Shown here: in pieces, positions 27,176-55,049 of the stretch | Layout: every line of letters starts with the position of its first letter | Numbering within the stretch: position 1 is the stretch's first letter | Origin: an uncultured SAR86 cluster bacterium | GTDB lineage: Bacteria > Pseudomonadota > Gammaproteobacteria > Magnimaribacterales > D2472 | Direction of reading: 5' to 3' | Length of the DNA stretch: 64,000 nucleotides | Assembly: GCA_902512655.1 (NCBI GenBank) | Contig: CABXJR010000001.1 | Coordinates: 51,896-115,895 of the forward strand | Translations under genes and position numbers: made by a program | The notes under the pieces: model-generated | Seen by the model: the letters and a program-made list of their open reading frames with translations, nothing else | Told to the model about the DNA's origin: nothing | The model's database searches: none

Positions 27176-28318
27176 ATGAAGGGTTTCTTACCCAAAAAAG
27201 CGCCGGCTACTTCATTCTCAATTGAATCTAAATCTTGTTCAAGAATAGAAGAAATATGTAACAACCTGCCAAAATTATTATTGACTGGAAAAGTTCAGCA
27301 AACAATTAATAAGCTTTCTAAGAAAGACTTATCCATTAAGCAACTATTGGTTAATCAAATGGGGCAGGACTTAAAACTTGCGATGTCTCAACTGAGTTTT
27401 ATTGCTCATGCATACATCTGGGGTGATATTAAACCTAATGGTAAACTGCCAGAAGCCCTTGCAAAGCCATGGGTTGAAGTTGCCAAACATCAAGGAAGAC
27501 CTCCAATTTTAAGTTATGCAAGTTATTGTTTAGATAATTGGTTTTTAATAAATCAAGATGAAGGAATATCTTTAGAGAATGTTGGCTTGATAAATAACTT
27601 TTTAGGTGGAGTTGATGAGGATTGGTTTGTGACAATTCATGTTTGTATAGAAGATGCTGCCTCAGGAGCCATAGAAGCCTGCAAAAAAATATCTCAATGT
27701 GATAAAAATTCATCTGAAAAAGAAATATTAAAATTATTAAAACAAATAGTAGATTCAATGCAAAAAGTTAATTCAATTTTTGCAAGAATGCCTGAGAAAT
27801 GCGATCCATATATTTACTATCATCGTGTGCGCCCATTTATTTTTGGTACGAAAGATAACCCTGATCTTAAAAAAGGTCTTATATATGAAGGTCAGTTTGA
27901 TAATAAACCCCAATTTTATAGAGGGGAAACAGGGGCTCAAAGCGGCATCATTCCATCTTTAGATGGCGCATTGCAAATTTCACATACAAAAGATCATCTA
28001 AGACATTACTTAAATGAGATGAGGGATTATATGCCCCCTAAACATCGCAACTTTATTGCCTCACTTGAAAAAACCTCAATGATTAAAAATCTTTTACAAA
28101 ATTCTAAGAAACTTACTGATAAATACAATGACTGCCTTGAAGAAATCAGAGTATTCAGAGCAATGCATCTTGAATATGCAGGGACCTACATTCACAAGCA
28201 ATCTCAAATTAAAAATCCTTTTGGCAGAGGTGGCTCTTCAATCACGGGAACTGGCGGGACTCCTTTTATGACCTACCTAAAAAAGCATCGGGATGAAACG
28301 GAGCAACAGAAGAAATAA
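27176..28318 (+). CDS. Indoleamine 2,3-dioxygenase family protein
   Basis: Block-wise match to my memory of human IDO1: LIYEGQFDNKPQFYRGETGAQSGIIPSLD (vs [28 protein letters not shown]), YLNEMRDYMPPKHRNFI (vs FLQDMRRYMPPAHRNFL), and GTGGTPFMTYLK (vs GTGGTDLMNFLK). Confidence 0.8.
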   Translation: MKGFLPKKAPATSFSIESKSCSRIEEICNNLPKLLLTGKVQQTINKLSKKDLSIKQLLVNQMGQDLKLAMSQLSFIAHAYIWGDIKPNGKLPEALAKPWVEVAKHQGRPPILSYASYCLDNWFLINQDEGISLENVGLINNFLGGVDEDWFVTIHVCIEDAASGAIEACKKISQCDKNSSEKEILKLLKQIVDSMQKVNSIFARMPEKCDPYIYYHRVRPFIFGTKDNPDLKKGLIYEGQFDNKPQFYRGETGAQSGIIPSLDGALQISHTKDHLRHYLNEMRDYMPPKHRNFIASLEKTSMIKNLLQNSKKLTDKYNDCLEEIRVFRAMHLEYAGTYIHKQSQIKNPFGRGGSSITGTGGTPFMTYLKKHRDETEQQKK

Positions 28319-30871: not shown

Positions 30872-31978
30872 TTAGTTAAGATTTTGGTTTAAGTTGTTTA
30901 TGAAATTCAAGCTGCCATGCAAACAAGTCATTTCTTTTTCAACTAATGCTATGGGCATTTGAGCTAGGATATCTCTATGGACTGATCTTCTATTGATTAA
31001 AAAATTATCCATAAAAATACTAACATCAATAAATTGATAAAGAGTACGCATTAGACTTCCTATAATATATATTCCCTTTCCAGGCATGTATATCAAAGCT
31101 AGTTCAGAAAGAATTTGCGAAAAAGCTACTAAAAATATATCTATGCTCTTTTGAGAATATTGATTCTGATTATATGTTGCAACTATCTCTTCTGCTGACT
31201 TCTTGGTTGTATCAAAGTATGAATAAATTCTTGACAATCCTCTCCCAGAGATTAAGTCCTCAACAGTATTAAAAGTTGAATTATTCAAGATTCCAAGCTC
31301 ATCTAACAATCCGGGAATTCTAAATAAGCTGTTACCAATTTCAGTTGGAAGAACAATCTCTTTTCCAACAATCTGAGCGGCCCCCAACCCAGTACCTGGG
31401 CCAATAATTAATGCCACATCATTAAAAGATTTTCCTGGATTAATTATTTTCATCTCATTCTTTTCTAAATGATAAAAAATATGGCCTATTGACTCCCAAT
31501 CATTAAGAATATGGCATGAATCTAAAGAAAATTTTCTTAAAATATTACTTTTATCTATAGTAAATTTTCTATTTGTCATCGAAATAGAGTCATTCAGTTT
31601 TGGACCAGCAATTGAGAAAACTATGTTTTTAATATGTGGATATTTATCCAGAAAATTTTGCAAGATCTTATCAAATGAATCCAGGGAATCTATTTTTTGT
31701 TTTTTTACATCTTTTATTTCATTTGAACCAATATCAGCAATCGCTGATCTAATATTTGTTCCACCAATATCAATTAATAAAACACCCCCCTCAAGATATA
31801 ATTTTTTCTTTCTTAAGTTTTGAGCGCTCTTATTGGGTTTAAAGCCAAGCTTATCTATTGAAACGAAAACTTTACTTTTAGTAGAATCGGCAACATTTAC
31901 TTCATTATTAATTACTCTTGATACAGTTTTAATGGATACGCCTGCATCTATAGAAACATCTTTTATGGTAACTGTCAT
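30872..31978 (-). CDS. LacI-type HTH fused to a glucokinase-family (Glk) domain
   Basis: Residues 1-60 are a LacI HTH: TIKDVSIDAGVSIKTVSRVINN...KLGFKPNKSAQNLR. The rest matches Glk: LLIDIGGTNIRSAI, MTNRKF, ILNDWES, IIGPGTGLGAA, LISGRGL. Confidence 0.8.
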   Translation of the reverse strand: MTVTIKDVSIDAGVSIKTVSRVINNEVNVADSTKSKVFVSIDKLGFKPNKSAQNLRKKKLYLEGGVLLIDIGGTNIRSAIADIGSNEIKDVKKQKIDSLDSFDKILQNFLDKYPHIKNIVFSIAGPKLNDSISMTNRKFTIDKSNILRKFSLDSCHILNDWESIGHIFYHLEKNEMKIINPGKSFNDVALIIGPGTGLGAAQIVGKEIVLPTEIGNSLFRIPGLLDELGILNNSTFNTVEDLISGRGLSRIYSYFDTTKKSAEEIVATYNQNQYSQKSIDIFLVAFSQILSELALIYMPGKGIYIIGSLMRTLYQFIDVSIFMDNFLINRRSVHRDILAQMPIALVEKEMTCLHGSLNFINNLNQNLN

Positions 31979-32055
31979 AATGTATTGGATTTAATTAATT
32001 TATCTTAATATGTTCTTATATTTGATTAAATACATTTAATGGAATTTTGTTGAGA

Positions 32056-32312
32056 CAAAAAAAAACAGAGCCAGGCTCTGTCTTTTCAGTTCGAGATTGG
32101 AAGGGGTCTAAAGTGAGAATCTCTTTAGCTCCTTGGAGGCTTTCTCTTTCCTCCTTGGTGGGTTACTAAGCTCTTTTTTATCGTCGACTCTTAGTATCGC
32201 TTTCGCCCTTCGTCTCTTCCTTCTCTTTCTCTCTTACTCCCGTCTGCAGTTGTTTGTAAGTCGGTCCGAGTTGGTCTATTAAATATACGCCTTTAGGAAA
32301 TAGAGTCAACAC
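32056..32312. repeat. 257-bp direct repeat, copy 1 (100% identical to 35427-35683)
   Basis: Base-by-base comparison of the two stretches at a constant offset of 3371 nt found no mismatch. Similarity resumes weakly (AAAAAAATATAACTA) after 8 diverged nt. Confidence 0.95.
32057..32275 (-). ncRNA. Candidate sRNA or leader RNA of about 220 nt (copy 1), purine-rich, GGA-containing
   Basis: Minus strand carries -35 TTGACT (32309-32304), a 16-nt spacer and -10 TATATT (32287-32282). The terminator is ACAGAG-ccugg-CUCUGU plus U9 (32081-32057). There is no ATG on either strand. Confidence 0.5.
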
Positions 32313-32433
32313 CTCTATATAAAAAAATATAACTAATTAAAAAATGAACAGGAAATGAGTTACTTATATGATAAAAACTAATCAAAAATGTTACTTGAAT
32401 GAATTACATCAGCATACTTTTAAAAATTACGAA

Positions 32434-33276
32434 TTACAAATTTTTTTTAAGAAATTTCTGACCAGCCTGCATGCCAATCAAATAGTCTGCTTTCATAATT
32501 TTGCGATTAGTTGTTGCTCGCTTTGTGCTTAGTCGATTTGGGGGACAGATTTGTTGAATCGTACAATCACTTGGTGGCTTATTGATAAACTCAAGTGCGG
32601 AATTATATGTTGCCGCATTAGATAATAAGGCTCTAGAAATATTTGGATACGATCTTGTTGCAATAGCAGCTAAGTGGTTTTCAAACTTAGTTTTTCTTAC
32701 AAAAGTTTGCTCATAGGTTCGAATAATAGTTATGTCTCGAGCCCCCATTTCATAAGCTTTTTTTACAGGTAGTGGATCGGTAATACCTCCGTCATATTTT
32801 CGCTTACCATTAAGCATTACTGCATTCTTCATCAACAAAGGTAAAGAGCCAGTTGCAAGCATTTCATTTATGTAATTTTTTTTGGATAGTTCGATATATT
32901 CCGGTTTAGCAGTTGTAGCATCGGAAATTACTACATAAAATTTTTTTCTTTCTAAATTTTGTTGCAATCGATCAAAATCTATTGGAAAAACCTTATTTGC
33001 ATCCTGGTAAAGCTTCTCGAAATTCATAATGCTTTTATTAAATAGAATATTTGAATATCTGACATATTTTTTTGAAGCAGAAAAAAGCATTTTGTCTAAA
33101 TTATAATCAGCAACTTTTAATAGATACCAAAGCTGAACCACTGCTCCGTTAGATACACCTAAATGAAGATCGAATGGGTTATACGATGCCTGAATAAATG
33201 AGTCTGTTACTCCAAACGAAAAGACCCCTCTGCTTCCGCCACCTTCAACAATTAATGCTCTTTTGGTTGATTGCAT
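32434..33276 (-). CDS. Patatin-like phospholipase
   Basis: Oxyanion motif VEGGGSRGVF, nucleophile GVSNG (GxSxG), catalytic Asp context YDGGITD. Confidence 0.85.
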   Translation of the reverse strand: MQSTKRALIVEGGGSRGVFSFGVTDSFIQASYNPFDLHLGVSNGAVVQLWYLLKVADYNLDKMLFSASKKYVRYSNILFNKSIMNFEKLYQDANKVFPIDFDRLQQNLERKKFYVVISDATTAKPEYIELSKKNYINEMLATGSLPLLMKNAVMLNGKRKYDGGITDPLPVKKAYEMGARDITIIRTYEQTFVRKTKFENHLAAIATRSYPNISRALLSNAATYNSALEFINKPPSDCTIQQICPPNRLSTKRATTNRKIMKADYLIGMQAGQKFLKKNL

Positions 33277-33312
33277 AAATTAATAGTTATAAGTAATAAA
33301 ATTTTAGAAAAT

Positions 33313-33939
33313 TTATAATTTAAAAGATTCAATAATGCCTGCAACTACAAACTCTATAGCAAGAGCCCCAAGCAATATCCCAAAGATCTTTTGCACAACG
33401 ATAATAATGGTAGGGCCAACTTTTTTTGAAAGACTGGCAGACAGCCACATTGCGAAAGCAACTAAAATAATAATTATTAAAATCGGAGTAAAATTTATTA
33501 GTATCTCAGTTGGGTCATTTGTATTCGATTCAGCTATAAGTAAAGCAGTAGTCATTGCACCAGGACCTGCTATCAAGGGAATTGCTAAAGGAAAAATTGC
33601 AAGAGATTGAATAGATTCATCATCAAGAGCTACTTCAGCTGTATTCTGTCGCCTAGTTTGTCTTTGCTCTAGAACCATTTGAAATGCAATTGCAACCAGA
33701 AATAAGCCTCCAATTATTTTAAATGAGCTCATAGAAATACCCATAACATCTAATATTGCAGTTCCAAATAAGTAAAATAAAGATAGTATAAAAAAAGAGA
33801 CTATGGTTGCTTGGATATAGATTTTCTTAATATCATTTTTATTTAAGCCTTGAGTAAGACTTGCAAAAATAGGAACCAGTGCAATTGGATCAACCGCAAC
33901 AAATAGTAAAATTGTATTTTCAAGTAACTGATCAAACAT
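33313..33939 (-). CDS. MarC-family (UPF0056) integral membrane protein
   Basis: 208 aa, 6 TM. The N-terminal LLFVAVDPIALVPIF and PLAIPLIAGPGAMTT motifs are typical of MarC/UPF0056. Confidence 0.8.
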   Translation of the reverse strand: MFDQLLENTILLFVAVDPIALVPIFASLTQGLNKNDIKKIYIQATIVSFFILSLFYLFGTAILDVMGISMSSFKIIGGLFLVAIAFQMVLEQRQTRRQNTAEVALDDESIQSLAIFPLAIPLIAGPGAMTTALLIAESNTNDPTEILINFTPILIIIILVAFAMWLSASLSKKVGPTIIIVVQKIFGILLGALAIEFVVAGIIESFKL

Positions 33940-33940
33940 T

Positions 33941-35353
33941 TTAGGTAGCTATTATTTGAATTGAGTCAGTGTGAGATGCAGAATACACCCCCGCTATTAA
34001 TACAAATTTTAGTGATTTTTTAGACTTCTTGCCAGACATTAAAATTGATTTGATCTTTGAGATTGTTTTTTTTTGATTGATTATTGATTTTATAAAATGC
34101 GGCTTCATTCCACCGATTATGCTTAAATGACAGTATGTATCATGATTATTTGTAAATGCATAAACAGGCATTCGAAATGGTTTTGTGTTTGAAACTACAT
34201 TTGCCGTCTGACCTGACCGAGTGATGACAACTATTCCATCTGCATTTATTCTTTCTGCAAGATCCCGAGCTCCTTGTGCAATATTTTGCCAGTCTGAATT
34301 ATCTTGAAGAAATTTTTCATAACCCAGAGTTCTAAATAGTTCTGTTCTAACAGCTATTTTCTTCAGCATTTTGATGCATTGAACGGGATATTTACCAACG
34401 CTGGTTTCACCTGAAAGCATTACAGCATCAGCTCCCTCATATATTGCGTTTGCAACATCAGTAACTTCTGCTCTTGTTGGAGTTGGATGATGGATCATAG
34501 ACTCCAATAAATGCGTTGCAACAACAGATCTTCTCCCCCATTTTGCAGTTGCATACATAATTCTTCTTTGTATATTAGGCAAATCAGCAAGGTCGGTCTC
34601 AATTCCCAAATCACCTCTTGCAACCATAACAATATCTGCAGCCTGCGTAATTTCATGAATATTATCTAGCCCCTCTTGATTTTCAATCTTTGCAATAATT
34701 TTTATTAATGATTTTTTTCTTTTCAATATGGATCTAAGATTAGATATATCTTGAGCAGATCTTACAAAGGACAAAGCAACGAAACTAACGTTGTGCTTGA
34801 TTCCAAAATTAATGTCCTTGCGATCTTTTTTAGTTATCGATGGTAAATCGACTCTAACTCCTGGAAGGTTAACATGACGTTTGCTACCAAGAGTTCCACC
34901 ATCAAGAACTTTGCACTTCAAACTTTCATTATCTTTTGCTAAGACTTTAAAATTAAGCAAGCCATTATCTATACTTATTTTGGAACCCTTATCTACACTT
35001 TTTATAAGGCCTTTGTAATTAATTTTAATTGAAGAAGTTTCCACATCAATATCATCTCTTATTGTAAGATTAACTATGTCACCTGTTTGGAGATCAATAT
35101 CCGATTGGTTAATACCTGTTCTAATTTCTGGCCCTTGTGTATCTAACAATATGCCTATTGGACCAAATGATTGTGACTGTTTTCTATTGACCCTTTGAAT
35201 TGACTCAATAATTTTTAATGCGTCAGTCTGTGATGCATGAGACATGTTTATTCTTGCTACATTCATGCCAGCAGCATGCAAGTCTTTTAACGACGAATAT
35301 TCGTTTGTGCTAGGGCCAATTGTTGCAATAATTTTTGTTTTAGTAATAAGCAT
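33941..35353 (-). CDS. pyk: Pyruvate kinase
   Basis: KIIATIGP, MNVARINMSH, IIAKIENQEG, IMVARGDLGIE and MLSGETSVGKYP are canonical pyruvate kinase motifs. Confidence 0.95.
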   Translation of the reverse strand: MLITKTKIIATIGPSTNEYSSLKDLHAAGMNVARINMSHASQTDALKIIESIQRVNRKQSQSFGPIGILLDTQGPEIRTGINQSDIDLQTGDIVNLTIRDDIDVETSSIKINYKGLIKSVDKGSKISIDNGLLNFKVLAKDNESLKCKVLDGGTLGSKRHVNLPGVRVDLPSITKKDRKDINFGIKHNVSFVALSFVRSAQDISNLRSILKRKKSLIKIIAKIENQEGLDNIHEITQAADIVMVARGDLGIETDLADLPNIQRRIMYATAKWGRRSVVATHLLESMIHHPTPTRAEVTDVANAIYEGADAVMLSGETSVGKYPVQCIKMLKKIAVRTELFRTLGYEKFLQDNSDWQNIAQGARDLAERINADGIVVITRSGQTANVVSNTKPFRMPVYAFTNNHDTYCHLSIIGGMKPHFIKSIINQKKTISKIKSILMSGKKSKKSLKFVLIAGVYSASHTDSIQIIAT

Positions 35354-35426
35354 GGGCAGGATGATACTCCATTAAAATTTAAAATGAAGCAATGGTATTG
35401 ATTTATGTATGTTAGCTTATATAAGG

Positions 35427-35683
35427 CAAAAAAAAACAGAGCCAGGCTCTGTCTTTTCAGTTCGAGATTGGAAGGGGTCTAAAGTGAGAATCTCTTTAGC
35501 TCCTTGGAGGCTTTCTCTTTCCTCCTTGGTGGGTTACTAAGCTCTTTTTTATCGTCGACTCTTAGTATCGCTTTCGCCCTTCGTCTCTTCCTTCTCTTTC
35601 TCTCTTACTCCCGTCTGCAGTTGTTTGTAAGTCGGTCCGAGTTGGTCTATTAAATATACGCCTTTAGGAAATAGAGTCAACAC
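35427..35683. repeat. 257-bp direct repeat, copy 2 (100% identical to 32056-32312)
   Basis: See copy 1. Offset 3371 nt. Confidence 0.95.
35428..35646 (-). ncRNA. Candidate sRNA or leader RNA of about 220 nt (copy 2)
   Basis: Same promoter and terminator as copy 1, shifted by 3371 nt. The terminator ends 74 nt upstream of the pyk ATG (35353). Confidence 0.5.
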
Positions 35684-35718
35684 TTTTTATTAAAAAAATA
35701 TAACTATTTTAATAAAAA

Positions 35719-37731
35719 TTATTTATTCCATTTATTTTCATAAAAATCAGCTAAAACATCGAAGGCTGCTTTTTTATTTCCATTCTCATCAATTAAACCT
35801 TTCCTATTATAAAAATCTTGAATACCAGGCAACGGTCTTAACATAGCTCTGAAATCTTTGAAGACCCATGGGCTAATTCCTTTAATTTGAGGGTTATTGG
35901 AAAGCATTTCTAATTGATGCCTGTAGAGTCTAGCTTGATATTCTTCGGACCAGATTTTATTTGAATGATTTCCATATTTTGCTCCAGCACCAAATTCAGA
36001 TATATGGATAGGCTTATTAAAAACCGAGCTTATTTTGATATTAGGCAGAACCTCGAACATTAATTTCCTAAGCGTTCCTTCAGGAATCATCATTTGATCT
36101 GTAAAAAATGTTACGTAATACCAACCAAAGTATTCATTGTAAGAAATTAGATCAACACTCTTGCCAAGCGGATCATCAATTGAGATAGAAAAATTTAATT
36201 CACTATCAATTGGTATATTTGCTTGATCTAGGATGAATTGAAAAATAGCTTTTTCTTGCGGATTAACCCATTGAGATTTAACTCCCTGCAATGCTAACAC
36301 TAATACCAATGCTTTAAACTGTTCCTCGCTACCTGACAAAAGAGCTGCTGTTGTTAATCGCGTTGAATCAATAGCTTCTATCTCTGAGAGAAGTGTATTT
36401 AAAAATTTCATTCTTGATGAGGATAATGGAGTTTCATTTGCTACAGACCAAACCACTACAGATGCTCTATTTTGATCTCTTTGCACTAATCTTTTAATTT
36501 GGTTTATTGCGATATTCAGTGTTTCAGAATTATCCCAGTCAATATTCCAATAAACAGGAACCTCTTCCCACAACATTAAACCTAATCTGTCTGCAACCTT
36601 TGCTAGATGGCGAGTATATGGATAATGAGCTGCTCTTATAAAATTAATATTAAGATCTTTAGCCATTAAAAGAAGGTCTTGAAAATGCTCTTTTGAAAAG
36701 GCTGGGCCTGGAATTCCAATAGGCTCAGAGTGCATAGCGATTCCCTTAAACTGAATCTCACTATTATTTAGATATATATTTTGACCTTCCACTTTGATGG
36801 AACGAAATCCTATTTCATCAGAAATAATTTCTTGATCAGAAGAAATGATTACCTTGTAAAGTTTTGGATCAGTTGGCGACCAAAGTCTAGGAGCAATTAT
36901 TATACTTTCTCTAATAAATCCGACAGTATTGGTTATAAATTCATCTTTAAATTGGAGCTCAGGAATTTCAAGCACAATCCTTTGCCCTGAAAGCTCCTGG
37001 TTCATTTCAAGTTTAAATAGAGCTTCGAAGAAGTTTTCTGGATTTAACTGCAGATATGCATTTTGTATAAATTTTTTCGGAGTTTCGACTATGTATACAT
37101 CGCCAACAATCCCTCCCCAAGGCCACCAATCAGTTTTTTGCGTAGGAACAGAGGACTGATTAAGCGTATTGTCAGTTTGCACTAGTAGAATATTCTCTCC
37201 ATTTTTTAAATGTTTGGAAATATCAAAATTAAATGGGACGTAGCCACCTTCAAATTCTCCAATGATTGAACCATTTATAAATATCTTAGTAGTGAAGTTG
37301 CTGCCTTCTATATAGAGATGAGTTATAGCTTCTTTTTTAGGCTGATAATTAAACTTTTTGTAGAGCCAGACAGGTCCTCTATAAAAAAATAGTTTTTTAT
37401 CTATAGCATTCCAAGCACCAGGAATTTGAATTTTTGCTGCAGTATCGAAATTGTATTCAATCAATTCCATGCCTGTTTTTTGGGTTTTATTTTTAGGAAA
37501 TCCTCCAAAAAATGATGACTCTGGCAAGCCGTTATTCATAGGGTCAACTATGTAACTCCATTCACCGTTTAAAGTAGTAATTTGACGTGAATCTATCCAG
37601 CCAATTAAATTATCTGGAGAAGGATAATTGGGAGCCTCTCTTTCAAAAAAACTATCTGCATCAGATTTATCTTCAGAGTATAAACTGATTGTAAAAACTG
37701 CTAAAAAGAAAAAGAAAATTCTTGAAATCAT
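35719..37731 (-). CDS. Glycoside hydrolase family 2 enzyme (beta-glucuronidase/galactosidase-like), secreted
   Basis: Signal peptide. Sugar-binding, Ig-like and TIM-barrel order. IRAAHYP, the acid/base WSVANE, and the SEFG nucleophile context. Confidence 0.8.
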   Translation of the reverse strand: MISRIFFFFLAVFTISLYSEDKSDADSFFEREAPNYPSPDNLIGWIDSRQITTLNGEWSYIVDPMNNGLPESSFFGGFPKNKTQKTGMELIEYNFDTAAKIQIPGAWNAIDKKLFFYRGPVWLYKKFNYQPKKEAITHLYIEGSNFTTKIFINGSIIGEFEGGYVPFNFDISKHLKNGENILLVQTDNTLNQSSVPTQKTDWWPWGGIVGDVYIVETPKKFIQNAYLQLNPENFFEALFKLEMNQELSGQRIVLEIPELQFKDEFITNTVGFIRESIIIAPRLWSPTDPKLYKVIISSDQEIISDEIGFRSIKVEGQNIYLNNSEIQFKGIAMHSEPIGIPGPAFSKEHFQDLLLMAKDLNINFIRAAHYPYTRHLAKVADRLGLMLWEEVPVYWNIDWDNSETLNIAINQIKRLVQRDQNRASVVVWSVANETPLSSSRMKFLNTLLSEIEAIDSTRLTTAALLSGSEEQFKALVLVLALQGVKSQWVNPQEKAIFQFILDQANIPIDSELNFSISIDDPLGKSVDLISYNEYFGWYYVTFFTDQMMIPEGTLRKLMFEVLPNIKISSVFNKPIHISEFGAGAKYGNHSNKIWSEEYQARLYRHQLEMLSNNPQIKGISPWVFKDFRAMLRPLPGIQDFYNRKGLIDENGNKKAAFDVLADFYENKWNK

Positions 37732-47591: not shown

Positions 47592-47693
47592 TATTAAATT
47601 TACTTGGCCTTTTATTTTGGCACAAAAGTCTTTTCTAGCTTTTTTATTGATGTTTACATTAAGTTCTTTCTGAATAAGAATTAACAAAGCAAC

Positions 47694-47734
47694 TGGAGCG
47701 GGAAACCAGGTTCGAACTGGCGACCTCAACTTGG
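47694..47734 (-). other. Degenerate 3' fragment of tRNA-Gly(GCC), fragment a
   Basis: 37 nt are identical to 50305-50341 (CCA end, T-arm, through CCTCAAC). One base is then missing and similarity is lost after TTGG. There is no 5' acceptor strand. Confidence 0.85.
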
Positions 47735-47762
47735 GAGAGTTGTGCTCCACCCTGAATTGTTT

Positions 47763-48977: not shown

Positions 48978-49153
48978 TATTCCTATTTTCCATTTCAGAT
49001 TTTATATAAATAATACACTGAAACATTACACAAAATACCGTACCTACTTCGTACCTACAAATAAATAATTGAAACATAGCAATAAGCACTAAAGCCTTCT
49101 ATGGGGTATTAGCTATAAAGCCTGTTCTAATGGGGTTAAAGTCTTGGTGGAAG

Positions 49154-49202
49154 TGGAGCGGGAAACCAGGTTCGAACTGGCGACCTCAACCTTGGCAAGG
49201 TT
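49154..49202 (-). other. 3' fragment of tRNA-Gly(GCC), fragment b
   Basis: 49 nt are identical to 50305-50353 (CCA end through the anticodon loop and 4 nt of the 5' anticodon-stem strand), followed by unrelated sequence. Confidence 0.9.
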
Positions 49203-50137: not shown

Positions 50138-50304
50138 AACTTTCCCACCTGTATAAAGTTTCTAAAAATTTTTAAATGTAAAAATAAAAACAATTATGAC
50201 GCTTTGTCTAAACAGTTGCTAATTTTTAAACTCCTAACTTCATCATCTATTTTTAAAAAGTGCTACGAAAGTACTTAGTTAAAATCGTGAGAAAAGCTTT
50301 AAAT

Positions 50305-50380
50305 TGGAGCGGGAAACCAGGTTCGAACTGGCGACCTCAACCTTGGCAAGGTTGCGCTCTACCAACTGAGCTATTCCCGC
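50305..50380 (-). tRNA. tRNA-Gly (anticodon GCC), intact
   Basis: The reverse complement is GCGGGAATAGCTCAGTTGGTAGAGCGCAACCTTGCCAAGGTTGAGGTCGCCAGTTCGAACCTGGTTTCCCGCTCCA: a full cloverleaf with anticodon loop TTGCCAA. Confidence 0.95.
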
Positions 50381-50468
50381 TTTTGAGTTGGATAATATAC
50401 ATCCAAGGGAATATGCATTCAAGCTTAAAAAGACTGATATTTAGCAGCTTTTAAAAATGTAAAAATTT

Positions 50469-54957: not shown

Positions 54958-54997
54958 CCTTGGCAAGGTTGCGCTCTACCAACTGAGCTATTCCCGC
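54958..54997 (-). other. 5' fragment of tRNA-Gly(GCC), fragment d, with diverged upstream flank
   Basis: 40 nt are identical to 50341-50380 (anticodon stem-loop, D-arm, 5' acceptor strand). The adjoining 43 nt (54998-55040) match the flank of the intact gene (50381-50423) at about 35/43 positions by manual alignment. Confidence 0.85.
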
Positions 54998-55049
54998 TTT
55001 TGAGTTGGTTAATGTACATCCATGACATAAAGCATTCAAGAGAATTCTG

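Follow-up and report, generated by a model that had tools for sequence, protein, structure and literature searches.

Two identical IMES-1 RNA genes beside sugar-to-pyruvate genes in a SAR86-cluster genome: a known marine RNA that is very probably a stand-alone gene

IMES-1 (Rfam RF02034) is a structured RNA which has been catalogued since 2009 without a function. It is said to have been described in that year by Weinberg et al. from marine environmental sequence only, with very high read counts reportedly found in Pacific metatranscriptomes. An abundant non-coding RNA of SAR86 was reportedly first sighted by Shi et al., also in 2009. In surface seawater SAR86 ranks among the most numerous groups of bacteria. 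The DNA analyzed here, referred to as the window, is a stretch of 64,000 nucleotides (nt) from an uncultured bacterium of the SAR86 cluster (Magnimaribacterales; contig CABXJR010000001.1). The element under study, which lies on its minus strand, is one of two identical IMES-1 genes in this genome. Its product is very probably the RNA itself, made from an autonomous gene, and not a leader of the glucokinase-like gene which follows it.

Dupont et al. 2012 (PMC3358033) placed an abundant non-coding RNA among the SAR86 genes for glycolysis, glucose uptake and pyruvate metabolism, their conclusion being that SAR86 regulates its carbon assimilation by means of RNA. In the SAR86A scaffold of that study (our locus L010) IMES-1 scores 199.7 bits and is flanked by a gene of the indoleamine-dioxygenase family (IDO) and the gene for pyruvate kinase, and because of this the RNA of Dupont et al. 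is probably IMES-1. The IMES-1 motif is not mentioned in Weinberg 2010. Both the element and its genomic context are thus already known, and what is described here is a rediscovery rather than a new element.

The whole window was scanned against Rfam 15 at the curated thresholds, and a second look was taken down to E<=1. IMES-1 was matched at 32081-32270 and at 35452-35641, both on the minus strand, with 198.1 bits each (E ~1e-45) against a gathering score of 81 bits, and both matches span positions 1-191 of the 191 in the model. The identity of the element as IMES-1 is practically beyond doubt. An earlier note on this DNA, made from the letters alone, had recognised no Rfam family in it and had proposed a covariance-model scan; the first was an error, as both copies are full-length members of a known family, and the scan was what revealed it. 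Apart from IMES-1, just two matches appeared down to E<=1, both sub-threshold; these, AgrB (28 bits, threshold 40) and sraA (25 bits, threshold 56), lie over the terminator and spacer and were taken as chance.

Each match sits within a module of promoter, RNA and terminator, the parts of which are listed in Table 1. The sequence features which the earlier note had read in the first copy all held when recounted. The near-consensus Sigma 70 promoter, in which a 16-nt spacer separates TTGACT (32309-32304) from TATATT (32287-32282), is the best Sigma 70-like match within 31900-35800, scoring 10/12. The hairpin, given as 6-7 base pairs (bp) followed by U9, has a 7-bp stem at 32081-32065, and the U9 tract occupies 32065-32057, its first U doubling as the last base of the stem. 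The distance of 78 nt to the ATG at 31978 was confirmed, as was the nature of the gene which begins there, by its Pfam domains. The stretch free of ATG, estimated at about 220 nt, is in fact longer, ATG and CAT both being absent between 32345 and 32042 (~300 nt). The purine run (44/49 at 32197-32245) and the six GGA triplets were correctly counted; 2.6 GGA would be expected, and the transcript is 62% purine versus 50.5% for that strand of the window. The pairings of AAGGAGG (32156-32150) with CCUCC (32139-32135) and of CUAAAG (32128-32123) with CUUUAG (32113-32108) also stand. The note had spoken of a first copy, implying a further one, and this was found at 35424-35715. The two modules form a 292-nt direct repeat of 97% overall identity, with no difference from the start of the -35 box to the end of the terminator. 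The pattern of the conserved core occurs twice in the window and in none of 100 shuffles, so that the repeat is far beyond chance.

Table 1. Features of the two IMES-1 modules and the genes 3' of them (positions in the window; copy counts refer to an alignment of distinct copies described in the text)
Feature	Position	Strand	Remarks
IMES-1 gene module copy 1 (promoter, RNA, terminator)	32053..32344	-	Limits from the direct repeat and two-copy alignment; nhmmer alignments of 62 SAR86 copies agree
A/T-rich tract 5' of -35, UP-element-like	32320..32332	-	T-run then A-run, at least 90% conserved in 107 copies; UP role presumed
-35 box TTGACT	32304..32309	-	TTGAC invariant in 107 distinct copies; promoter scan as in text
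-10 box TATATT	32282..32287	-	TA...T invariant in 107 copies; predicted transcription start ~32276-32274
IMES-1 RNA core	32081..32270	-	RF02034 positions 1-191, 198.1 bits against 81; fold backed by covariation
Self-complementary CUGCAG, terminal loop of first hairpin	32244..32249	-	Invariant in 107/107 copies
Self-complementary GUCGAC, terminal loop of helix P3	32183..32188	-	Variants all self-complementary, 321/321 alignment cells
Helix P4: GGAGG, loop AAAGAGAAAG, CCUCC	32135..32154	-	5 bp, 100% paired, compensatory changes at 4/5 pairs
Junction CAAGGAGC, best-conserved GGA site	32128..32135	-	GGA in 94% of copies; single-stranded, between P4 and P5
Helix P5: CUAAAG, loop, CUUUAG	32108..32128	-	6 bp, 97-98% paired, compensatory changes
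Intrinsic terminator: ACAGAGC, loop CUG, GCUCUGU (7-bp stem), then U9	32057..32081	-	Read directly; stem and U-tract invariant in 107 copies
IMES-1 gene module copy 2	35424..35715	-	-35 35680-35675, -10 35658-35653, core 35452-35641, terminator 35428-35452
LacI-type helix-turn-helix (HTH) and glucokinase-family fusion, 3' of copy 1	30872..31978	-	PF00356 residues 4-49, PF02685 residues 67-359; neighbour, not part of the RNA
Pyruvate kinase, 3' of copy 2	33941..35353	-	Pfam PK and PK_C; copy 2 lies 74 nt upstream

Contigs representing one genome per species were searched with an exact pattern derived from the conserved core. This gave 57 genome loci, nearly all of them in single-cell or metagenome-assembled genomes of SAR86, including SAR86A, SAR86E and one closed chromosome of 1.3 Mb. 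With nhmmer, 62 copies in SAR86 loci were aligned over the whole module, and the 22 full-length copies from SAR86 loci which were scored with the Rfam model gave 181-200 bits, against 106 bits for a truncated copy (L059). Over 120 marine metagenome contigs carry IMES-1, with at least 131 copies; these and all other metagenome counts given here (contigs, copies and neighbours) are among the matches listed. Stretches of 2.4-6.4 kb of the window itself align collinearly with single-cell genomes of SAR86, with 82-88% of nucleotides identical, which places its source in the SAR86 cluster, in a genome other than the species representatives.

There are one or two copies of IMES-1 per genome or contig, the closed 1.3-Mb chromosome included. 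Many contigs start or stop inside the element, a repeat at which assemblies break, and so the copy numbers are minimum values. Sister copies in a genome do not differ (the pair in the window, L014 with L025, and L038 with L046), and where relatives share 82-88% of their flanking sequence, the module reaches 97-98% identity. A module more conserved than its flanks, together with identical copies within genomes, points to purifying selection and concerted evolution; the within-genome identity reads, from the sequences, as concerted evolution of the kind seen in rRNA operons. Copies from different SAR86 lineages differ by up to 35%.

Conservation was assessed on two alignments, A2 and A3, the latter of 107 distinct copies. 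All 107 share the -35 TTGAC and the -10 TA...T, and the terminator varies in none of them, either in its stem (ACAGAG/CUCUGU) or in having eight or more U after it. This bears out the earlier note, which had described a self-contained RNA module of the minus strand, complete with promoter and terminator. Promoter and terminator are likewise present in 66/66 full metagenome modules. Within the core the invariant blocks are CCGAC, AACUGCAGAC, AGGG.GAAAGC, AAGAGU, AAAAAA.AGCUU, CCACCAAG, AAGAGAAAG (the loop of P4), UCUCAC and GACCCCU.

When the Rfam structure was mapped on the alignments, 90.8% (A2) and 91.9% (A3) of the cells in paired positions were able to pair, versus 27-49% in controls with slid partners, the range for A3 being 30-45%. 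Pairs changed on both sides numbered 20 in A2 and 23 in A3, so the fold covaries among relatives, as the earlier note had proposed to examine. RNAalifold, run without the Rfam structure, independently recovered P3, P4, P5 and the terminator. The arms of P4 occur as GGAGG/CCUCC, GAAUUC/GAAUUC, AGUUC/GAACU and AUUUC/GAAAU. By energy, the fold of the single sequence was only mildly better than that of shuffles (z = -1.76), and the structural support therefore comes from covariation and not from energy.

That the element is instead a mobile repeat, of the type of a miniature inverted-repeat transposable element (MITE) or a repetitive extragenic palindrome (REP), or else a small protein-coding gene, is next to impossible. 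Its repetition in the window and the many contigs which end within it would suit a mobile repeat. Against this, there are just one or two copies per genome or contig even in the closed chromosome, the same few syntenic slots are occupied across SAR86, and the 292-nt unit has no terminal inverted repeats; on these grounds a MITE or REP-like element, which the earlier note had named as an outcome that would count against it, was rejected. As for a small gene, the ~300 nt contain no ATG, and the only open reading frames (ORFs), of 30-49 amino acids (aa), start with GTG or TTG; there is one on the RNA strand, and it begins inside the -35 box. Substitutions in IMES-1 track base-pairing rather than codons.

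The status of IMES-1 as a gene in its own right was judged from what lies downstream. Among copies with a determinable neighbour, a convergent gene is next downstream in 21/59 genome copies (36%) and 42/101 metagenome copies (42%), and these copies therefore lack a gene in the same orientation which they could regulate. In tandem arrangements (L012, L020, L048, L052) the promoter as well as the terminator is repeated in each unit. The pyruvate kinase gene has TTGCAA and TATCAT-like boxes of its own between the IMES-1 terminator and its ATG. Inspection of the alignment, which was not a formal search, revealed no conserved upstream complement to the invariant ACAGAG/CUCUGU arms, and the nearest antiterminator candidate, AAAAAAGAGC, varies without a matching change in the terminator arms. 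The convergent neighbours, the promoters of the tandem units, the boxes of pyruvate kinase and the invariant terminator together argue for a gene whose product is RNA and not for an attenuator. The earlier note had slightly preferred a stand-alone RNA, and the share of convergent neighbours agrees with that preference.

The second reading of that note was a cis-acting attenuator or riboswitch leader, in which IMES-1 would sense a metabolite or protein and control read-through into the genes for pyruvate kinase, glucokinase, pyruvate dehydrogenase (PDH) E1 or a symporter. Such a leader would account for the complex, conserved, riboswitch-like fold, for the ~60% of copies which precede a co-oriented gene, mostly pyruvate kinase at 37-75 nt past the terminator, and for the fact that all these co-oriented genes come from one pathway area. 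It does not account for the convergent genes (oadB, eda, oxidoreductase), whose stop codons may lie only ~10 nt away, for a promoter repeated in tandem units, for terminator arms which are invariant and lack a conserved complement upstream, for the separate boxes of pyruvate kinase, or for distances to the next gene ranging over 15-290 nt. No riboswitch family was matched in the window at E<=1. A cis-acting leader is for these reasons disfavored, and we regard it as quite improbable.

Several observations concern the borders of the stand-alone gene. In the spacers before pyruvate kinase (window 35354-35427; L007, L020, L021, L024, L048 and L052) the -35-like TTGCAA directly follows the U-tract, and a TATCAT/TAATAT box stands 7-13 nt before the ATG, which suggests a leaderless or nearly leaderless mRNA without a Shine-Dalgarno (SD) sequence. 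The IMES-1 terminator hairpin scores as a terminator on the plus strand too. In many genomes (L006, L027, L029-L031, L041, L045 and L046) a convergent gene for oxaloacetate decarboxylase beta has its stop codon ~10 nt from the terminator, which in the window corresponds to 32057-32081 and 35428-35452; transcription from either side probably ends at this one hairpin. After the U-tract comes a conserved G-Y-C-U.

The first reading of the earlier note was a sponge of the Csr/Rsm type, that is, an RNA which titrates a homologue of CsrA or RsmA by means of GGA motifs and thereby controls glycolysis. CsrA classically regulates carbon flux, glycolysis genes are neighbours of IMES-1, and the RNA is multi-copy and reported to be abundant. 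Across copies the transcripts are 61-66% purine and contain 3-8 GGA with a median of 5, more than the ~2.6 expected. Only two GGA sites are conserved in at least 90% of copies, namely CAAGGAGC (94%), in the P4-P5 junction, and ACGG(G)A (97%), on the 3' border of the first loop; neither occupies the center of a hairpin loop, unlike the sites in the apical loops of Csr/Rsm RNAs. GAAGGAAG is found in 60% of copies, and CUAAGGAA in 79%, being missing from the clade of the window itself. The SD-like GGAGG, which had been taken as a perfect SD mimic, is the 5' arm of the covarying helix P4, and GGAGG/CCUCC is just one variant of that helix, so mimicry of the SD is not conserved.

None of the families CsrB, CsrC, RsmX, RsmY and RsmZ was matched in the window even at E<=1, and no exact match to the GacA box (TGTAAG-N6-CTTACA) was found in the window or the genome loci. 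The conserved long-range structure and the invariant blocks without GGA are also unlike Csr/Rsm sponges. CsrA was not seen in the sequence sampled (the window and ~1.1 Mb of loci), which is uninformative on this point; in the literature and supplements searched nothing was found on csrA or hfq in SAR86. Membership of IMES-1 in the Csr/Rsm family is not supported, and a sponge of this type is unlikely. IMES-1 may still act in a sponge-like way on some other protein.

A sponge of the Hfq/Crc type, acting in catabolite repression like CrcZ of Pseudomonas, is very unlikely. The purine-rich RNA has (ARN)n runs of 3-6 triplets and a setting in carbon metabolism, as such a sponge would; ARN runs are to be expected in any RNA of 65% purine, the CrcZ-type AAnAAnAA is essentially absent (median 0 per transcript), and neither an Hfq nor a Crc gene was seen in the window and the ~1.1 Mb of loci, a locus-biased sample.

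Two terminal loops of the RNA contain self-complementary hexamers, CUGCAG (32249-32244) in the first hairpin and a second (32188-32183) in the loop of P3. The former does not vary in the 107 copies. The latter occurs in the same alignment as GUCGAC (52 copies), GUCGAU (40), GUCGGC (8) and GUGCAU (7), and a further variant, GUGCGC, found once in a wider set of 174 sequences, is also self-complementary. In the 321/321 cells the self-pairs are G-C (60) and G-U (47), U-A (99) and U-G (8), and C-G (100) and G-C (7). The CG-to-GC double change is present in 7 copies and all single changes preserve a wobble pair. Both GUGCAU and GUCGGC were found on each of the two major sequence backgrounds. As a control, all 159 gap-free hexamer windows of the transcript were examined, of which only these two were at least 90% self-complementary; among the 134 with at least three variants only the P3-loop hexamer reached 100%, the mean being 4.2%.

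Three of the four variants in the alignment are not palindromes as DNA, and so the constraint acts on the RNA. Self-pairing of a hexamer needs two RNA molecules, and the most economical reading is therefore that IMES-1 molecules meet by kissing loops. The maintenance of self-complementarity in the P3 loop through compensatory change is possibly a new observation and hints at RNA-RNA kissing. IMES-1 may accordingly be a self-assembling RNA, forming kissing dimers or larger RNA-only assemblies in SAR86 by way of its two loop hexamers. The invariance of CUGCAG, the self-complementarity of a varying P3-loop hexamer in 107/107 copies, its unique place among the variable windows, the recurrence of variants on both backgrounds and the non-palindromic DNA all speak for this. 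On the other side, independent substitution events are few, an invariant CUGCAG provides no evidence from covariation, and by chance about one Watson-Crick palindromic hexamer is expected per ~60 loop windows of one sequence. Self-assembly is therefore possible, if somewhat unlikely. It is compatible with the explanation favored below, and it would also be compatible with a high concentration of IMES-1 and with the homo-oligomeric, RNA-only complexes formed by other large bacterial RNAs, GOLLD, ROOL and OLE, as recently reported (PMC12286853). If true, self-association, and not titration of the CsrA type, would underlie the abundance and function of IMES-1.

Neighbouring genes were tabulated for 64 genome copies and 131 metagenome copies. 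Downstream on the same strand the commonest was pyruvate kinase (20 genome and 17 metagenome copies), along with PDH E1 (6 and 3), a Na:solute symporter (5 and 2), a patatin-like lipase (1 and 11) and the LacI-glucokinase fusion (2 and 0). Downstream and convergent were oxaloacetate decarboxylase beta (11 and 25), 2-keto-3-deoxy-6-phosphogluconate (KDPG) aldolase (2 and 9) and an NADP oxidoreductase (3 genome copies, its metagenome copies not being counted separately). Upstream and divergent was IDO (26 and 25). The arrangement of the LacI-glucokinase gene next to IMES-1 recurs in the SAR86 locus L019, and in one metagenome copy this gene is downstream but convergent. The combination of a LacI-type HTH with a complete glucokinase domain is an unusual architecture, and the protein could be a DNA-binding sugar kinase or a sensor.

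In most SAR86 lineages the gene found upstream and divergent more often than any other is IDO, of the indoleamine-2,3-dioxygenase family (380 aa), 45-78 nt from IMES-1; in the window it is located instead at 27176-28318 on the plus strand, ~4 kb away. A recurrent slot (L005 1-2000, L049 617-1029) has a tRNA-Ala(GGC) gene within ~65 nt 3' of IMES-1. In L005 this tRNA gene is followed by a serine recombinase of 518 aa, which suggests an integration hot spot beside the RNA gene.

A second tRNA region is found elsewhere in the window. On the minus strand at 50305-50380 is a gene for tRNA-Gly(GCC). Three repeats of its 3' half, 87-98% identical, were found (47691-47742, 49151-49202 and 50302-50353), and its 5' part with flank is repeated once at 90% (50341-50423 and 54958-55040). 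The segments between these repeats contain genes for DUF1214, an uncharacterized 298-aa ORF, cytochrome c / COX1-like proteins, an AurF-like protein, Usp and a CoA-transferase, with no integrase among them. These segments resemble the traces of one insertion after another at the tRNA gene.

The best explanation as a whole, and one we consider probable, is that of an autonomous IMES-1 gene giving a folded, trans-acting RNA tied to carbon metabolism. Each gene would be driven by an invariant, strong Sigma 70-type promoter (A/T tract, TTGAC, 16-17 nt, TAnnnT), which with its A/T tract and near-consensus boxes looks constitutive. The predicted product is a purine-rich, highly folded RNA of ~215 nt, ending at the invariant intrinsic terminator and presumably made in large amounts by high constitutive expression. 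Acting in trans, the RNA would be a stable, folded particle which binds a putative partner with those of its single-stranded, purine-rich segments and loops that are invariant. This could be a protein which is titrated or scaffolded, or other molecules of IMES-1 reached through the two self-complementary loops. Its activity would be tied to the sugar-to-pyruvate metabolism whose genes IMES-1 always neighbours. The narrower proposal that IMES-1 is a partner-binding RNA acting in trans and linked to carbon metabolism is put forward tentatively, as falling a little short of probable.

An indirect sign that IMES-1 RNA is plentiful may be seen in the only "viral" matches, three IMG/VR entries (L058 1927-2009, L059 1-172 and L060 1949-2060) in which fragments of IMES-1 are fused internally to other sequence. 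In L059 the partner is a picorna-like RNA virus, which encodes a polyprotein of 1634 aa with the polymerase motif YGDD and a capsid protein of 892 aa. The three are chimeric RNA-virus contigs assembled from RNA-derived libraries, in which the RNA would have been abundant. Their junctions fall inside IMES-1, and hence they do not define the ends of the transcript. Short contigs made up of the RNA alone, which might have marked those ends, were absent from the metagenome collection.

Several points weigh against the favored explanation. In the ~60% of copies upstream of a co-oriented gene, read-through of the terminator could add to the expression of that gene. The association with carbon genes may stem from one inherited ancestral locus and not from function. 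The binding partner is putative, and tblastn detected no CsrA, Hfq, ProQ or Crc in the 64-kb window and ~1.1 Mb of loci from genomes and metagenomes, a sample too small and too locus-biased to stand for whole genomes. The start near 32275 and the length of ~215 nt are predictions from sequence, and the equation of the RNA of Dupont et al. with IMES-1 is our own, the name IMES-1 being absent from PMC3358033. A SAR86 isolate, HIMB1674, exists (PMC11582366) and makes direct tests of IMES-1 possible.

In comparison with known RNAs, the copies in the window have the same helices, the same covariation and the same marine origin as IMES-1 of Rfam, with no structural difference. 6S RNA is likewise a very abundant small RNA (sRNA) of ~200 nt, the abundance of IMES-1 being as reported, and acts by binding a protein, RNA polymerase. 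It is a rod with a central bubble, whereas IMES-1 is a multi-hairpin junction, and no Rfam match to 6S RNA was found in the window. CsrB, RsmX, RsmY and RsmZ resemble IMES-1 in that all are sRNAs which stand alone, exist in multiple copies, are abundant, contain several GGA and have a tie to carbon metabolism; they differ from it in that IMES-1 has few conserved GGA, none of them apical, a long-range fold and long invariant blocks without GGA. The dimerization initiation site (DIS) of HIV-1, a self-complementary sequence of 6 nt in a hairpin loop which mediates dimerization, is like IMES-1 in its self-complementary loop hexamer. GOLLD, ROOL and OLE are structured bacterial RNAs as well; IMES-1 is much smaller (~190 nt), and its oligomerization is a prediction from sequence. 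To the description of IMES-1 itself the present comparison adds a SAR86 host, a strong promoter and a terminator that never vary, the presence of one gene, or of two identical ones, in each genome, a neighbourhood of sugar-to-pyruvate genes, and loops which look capable of self-pairing.

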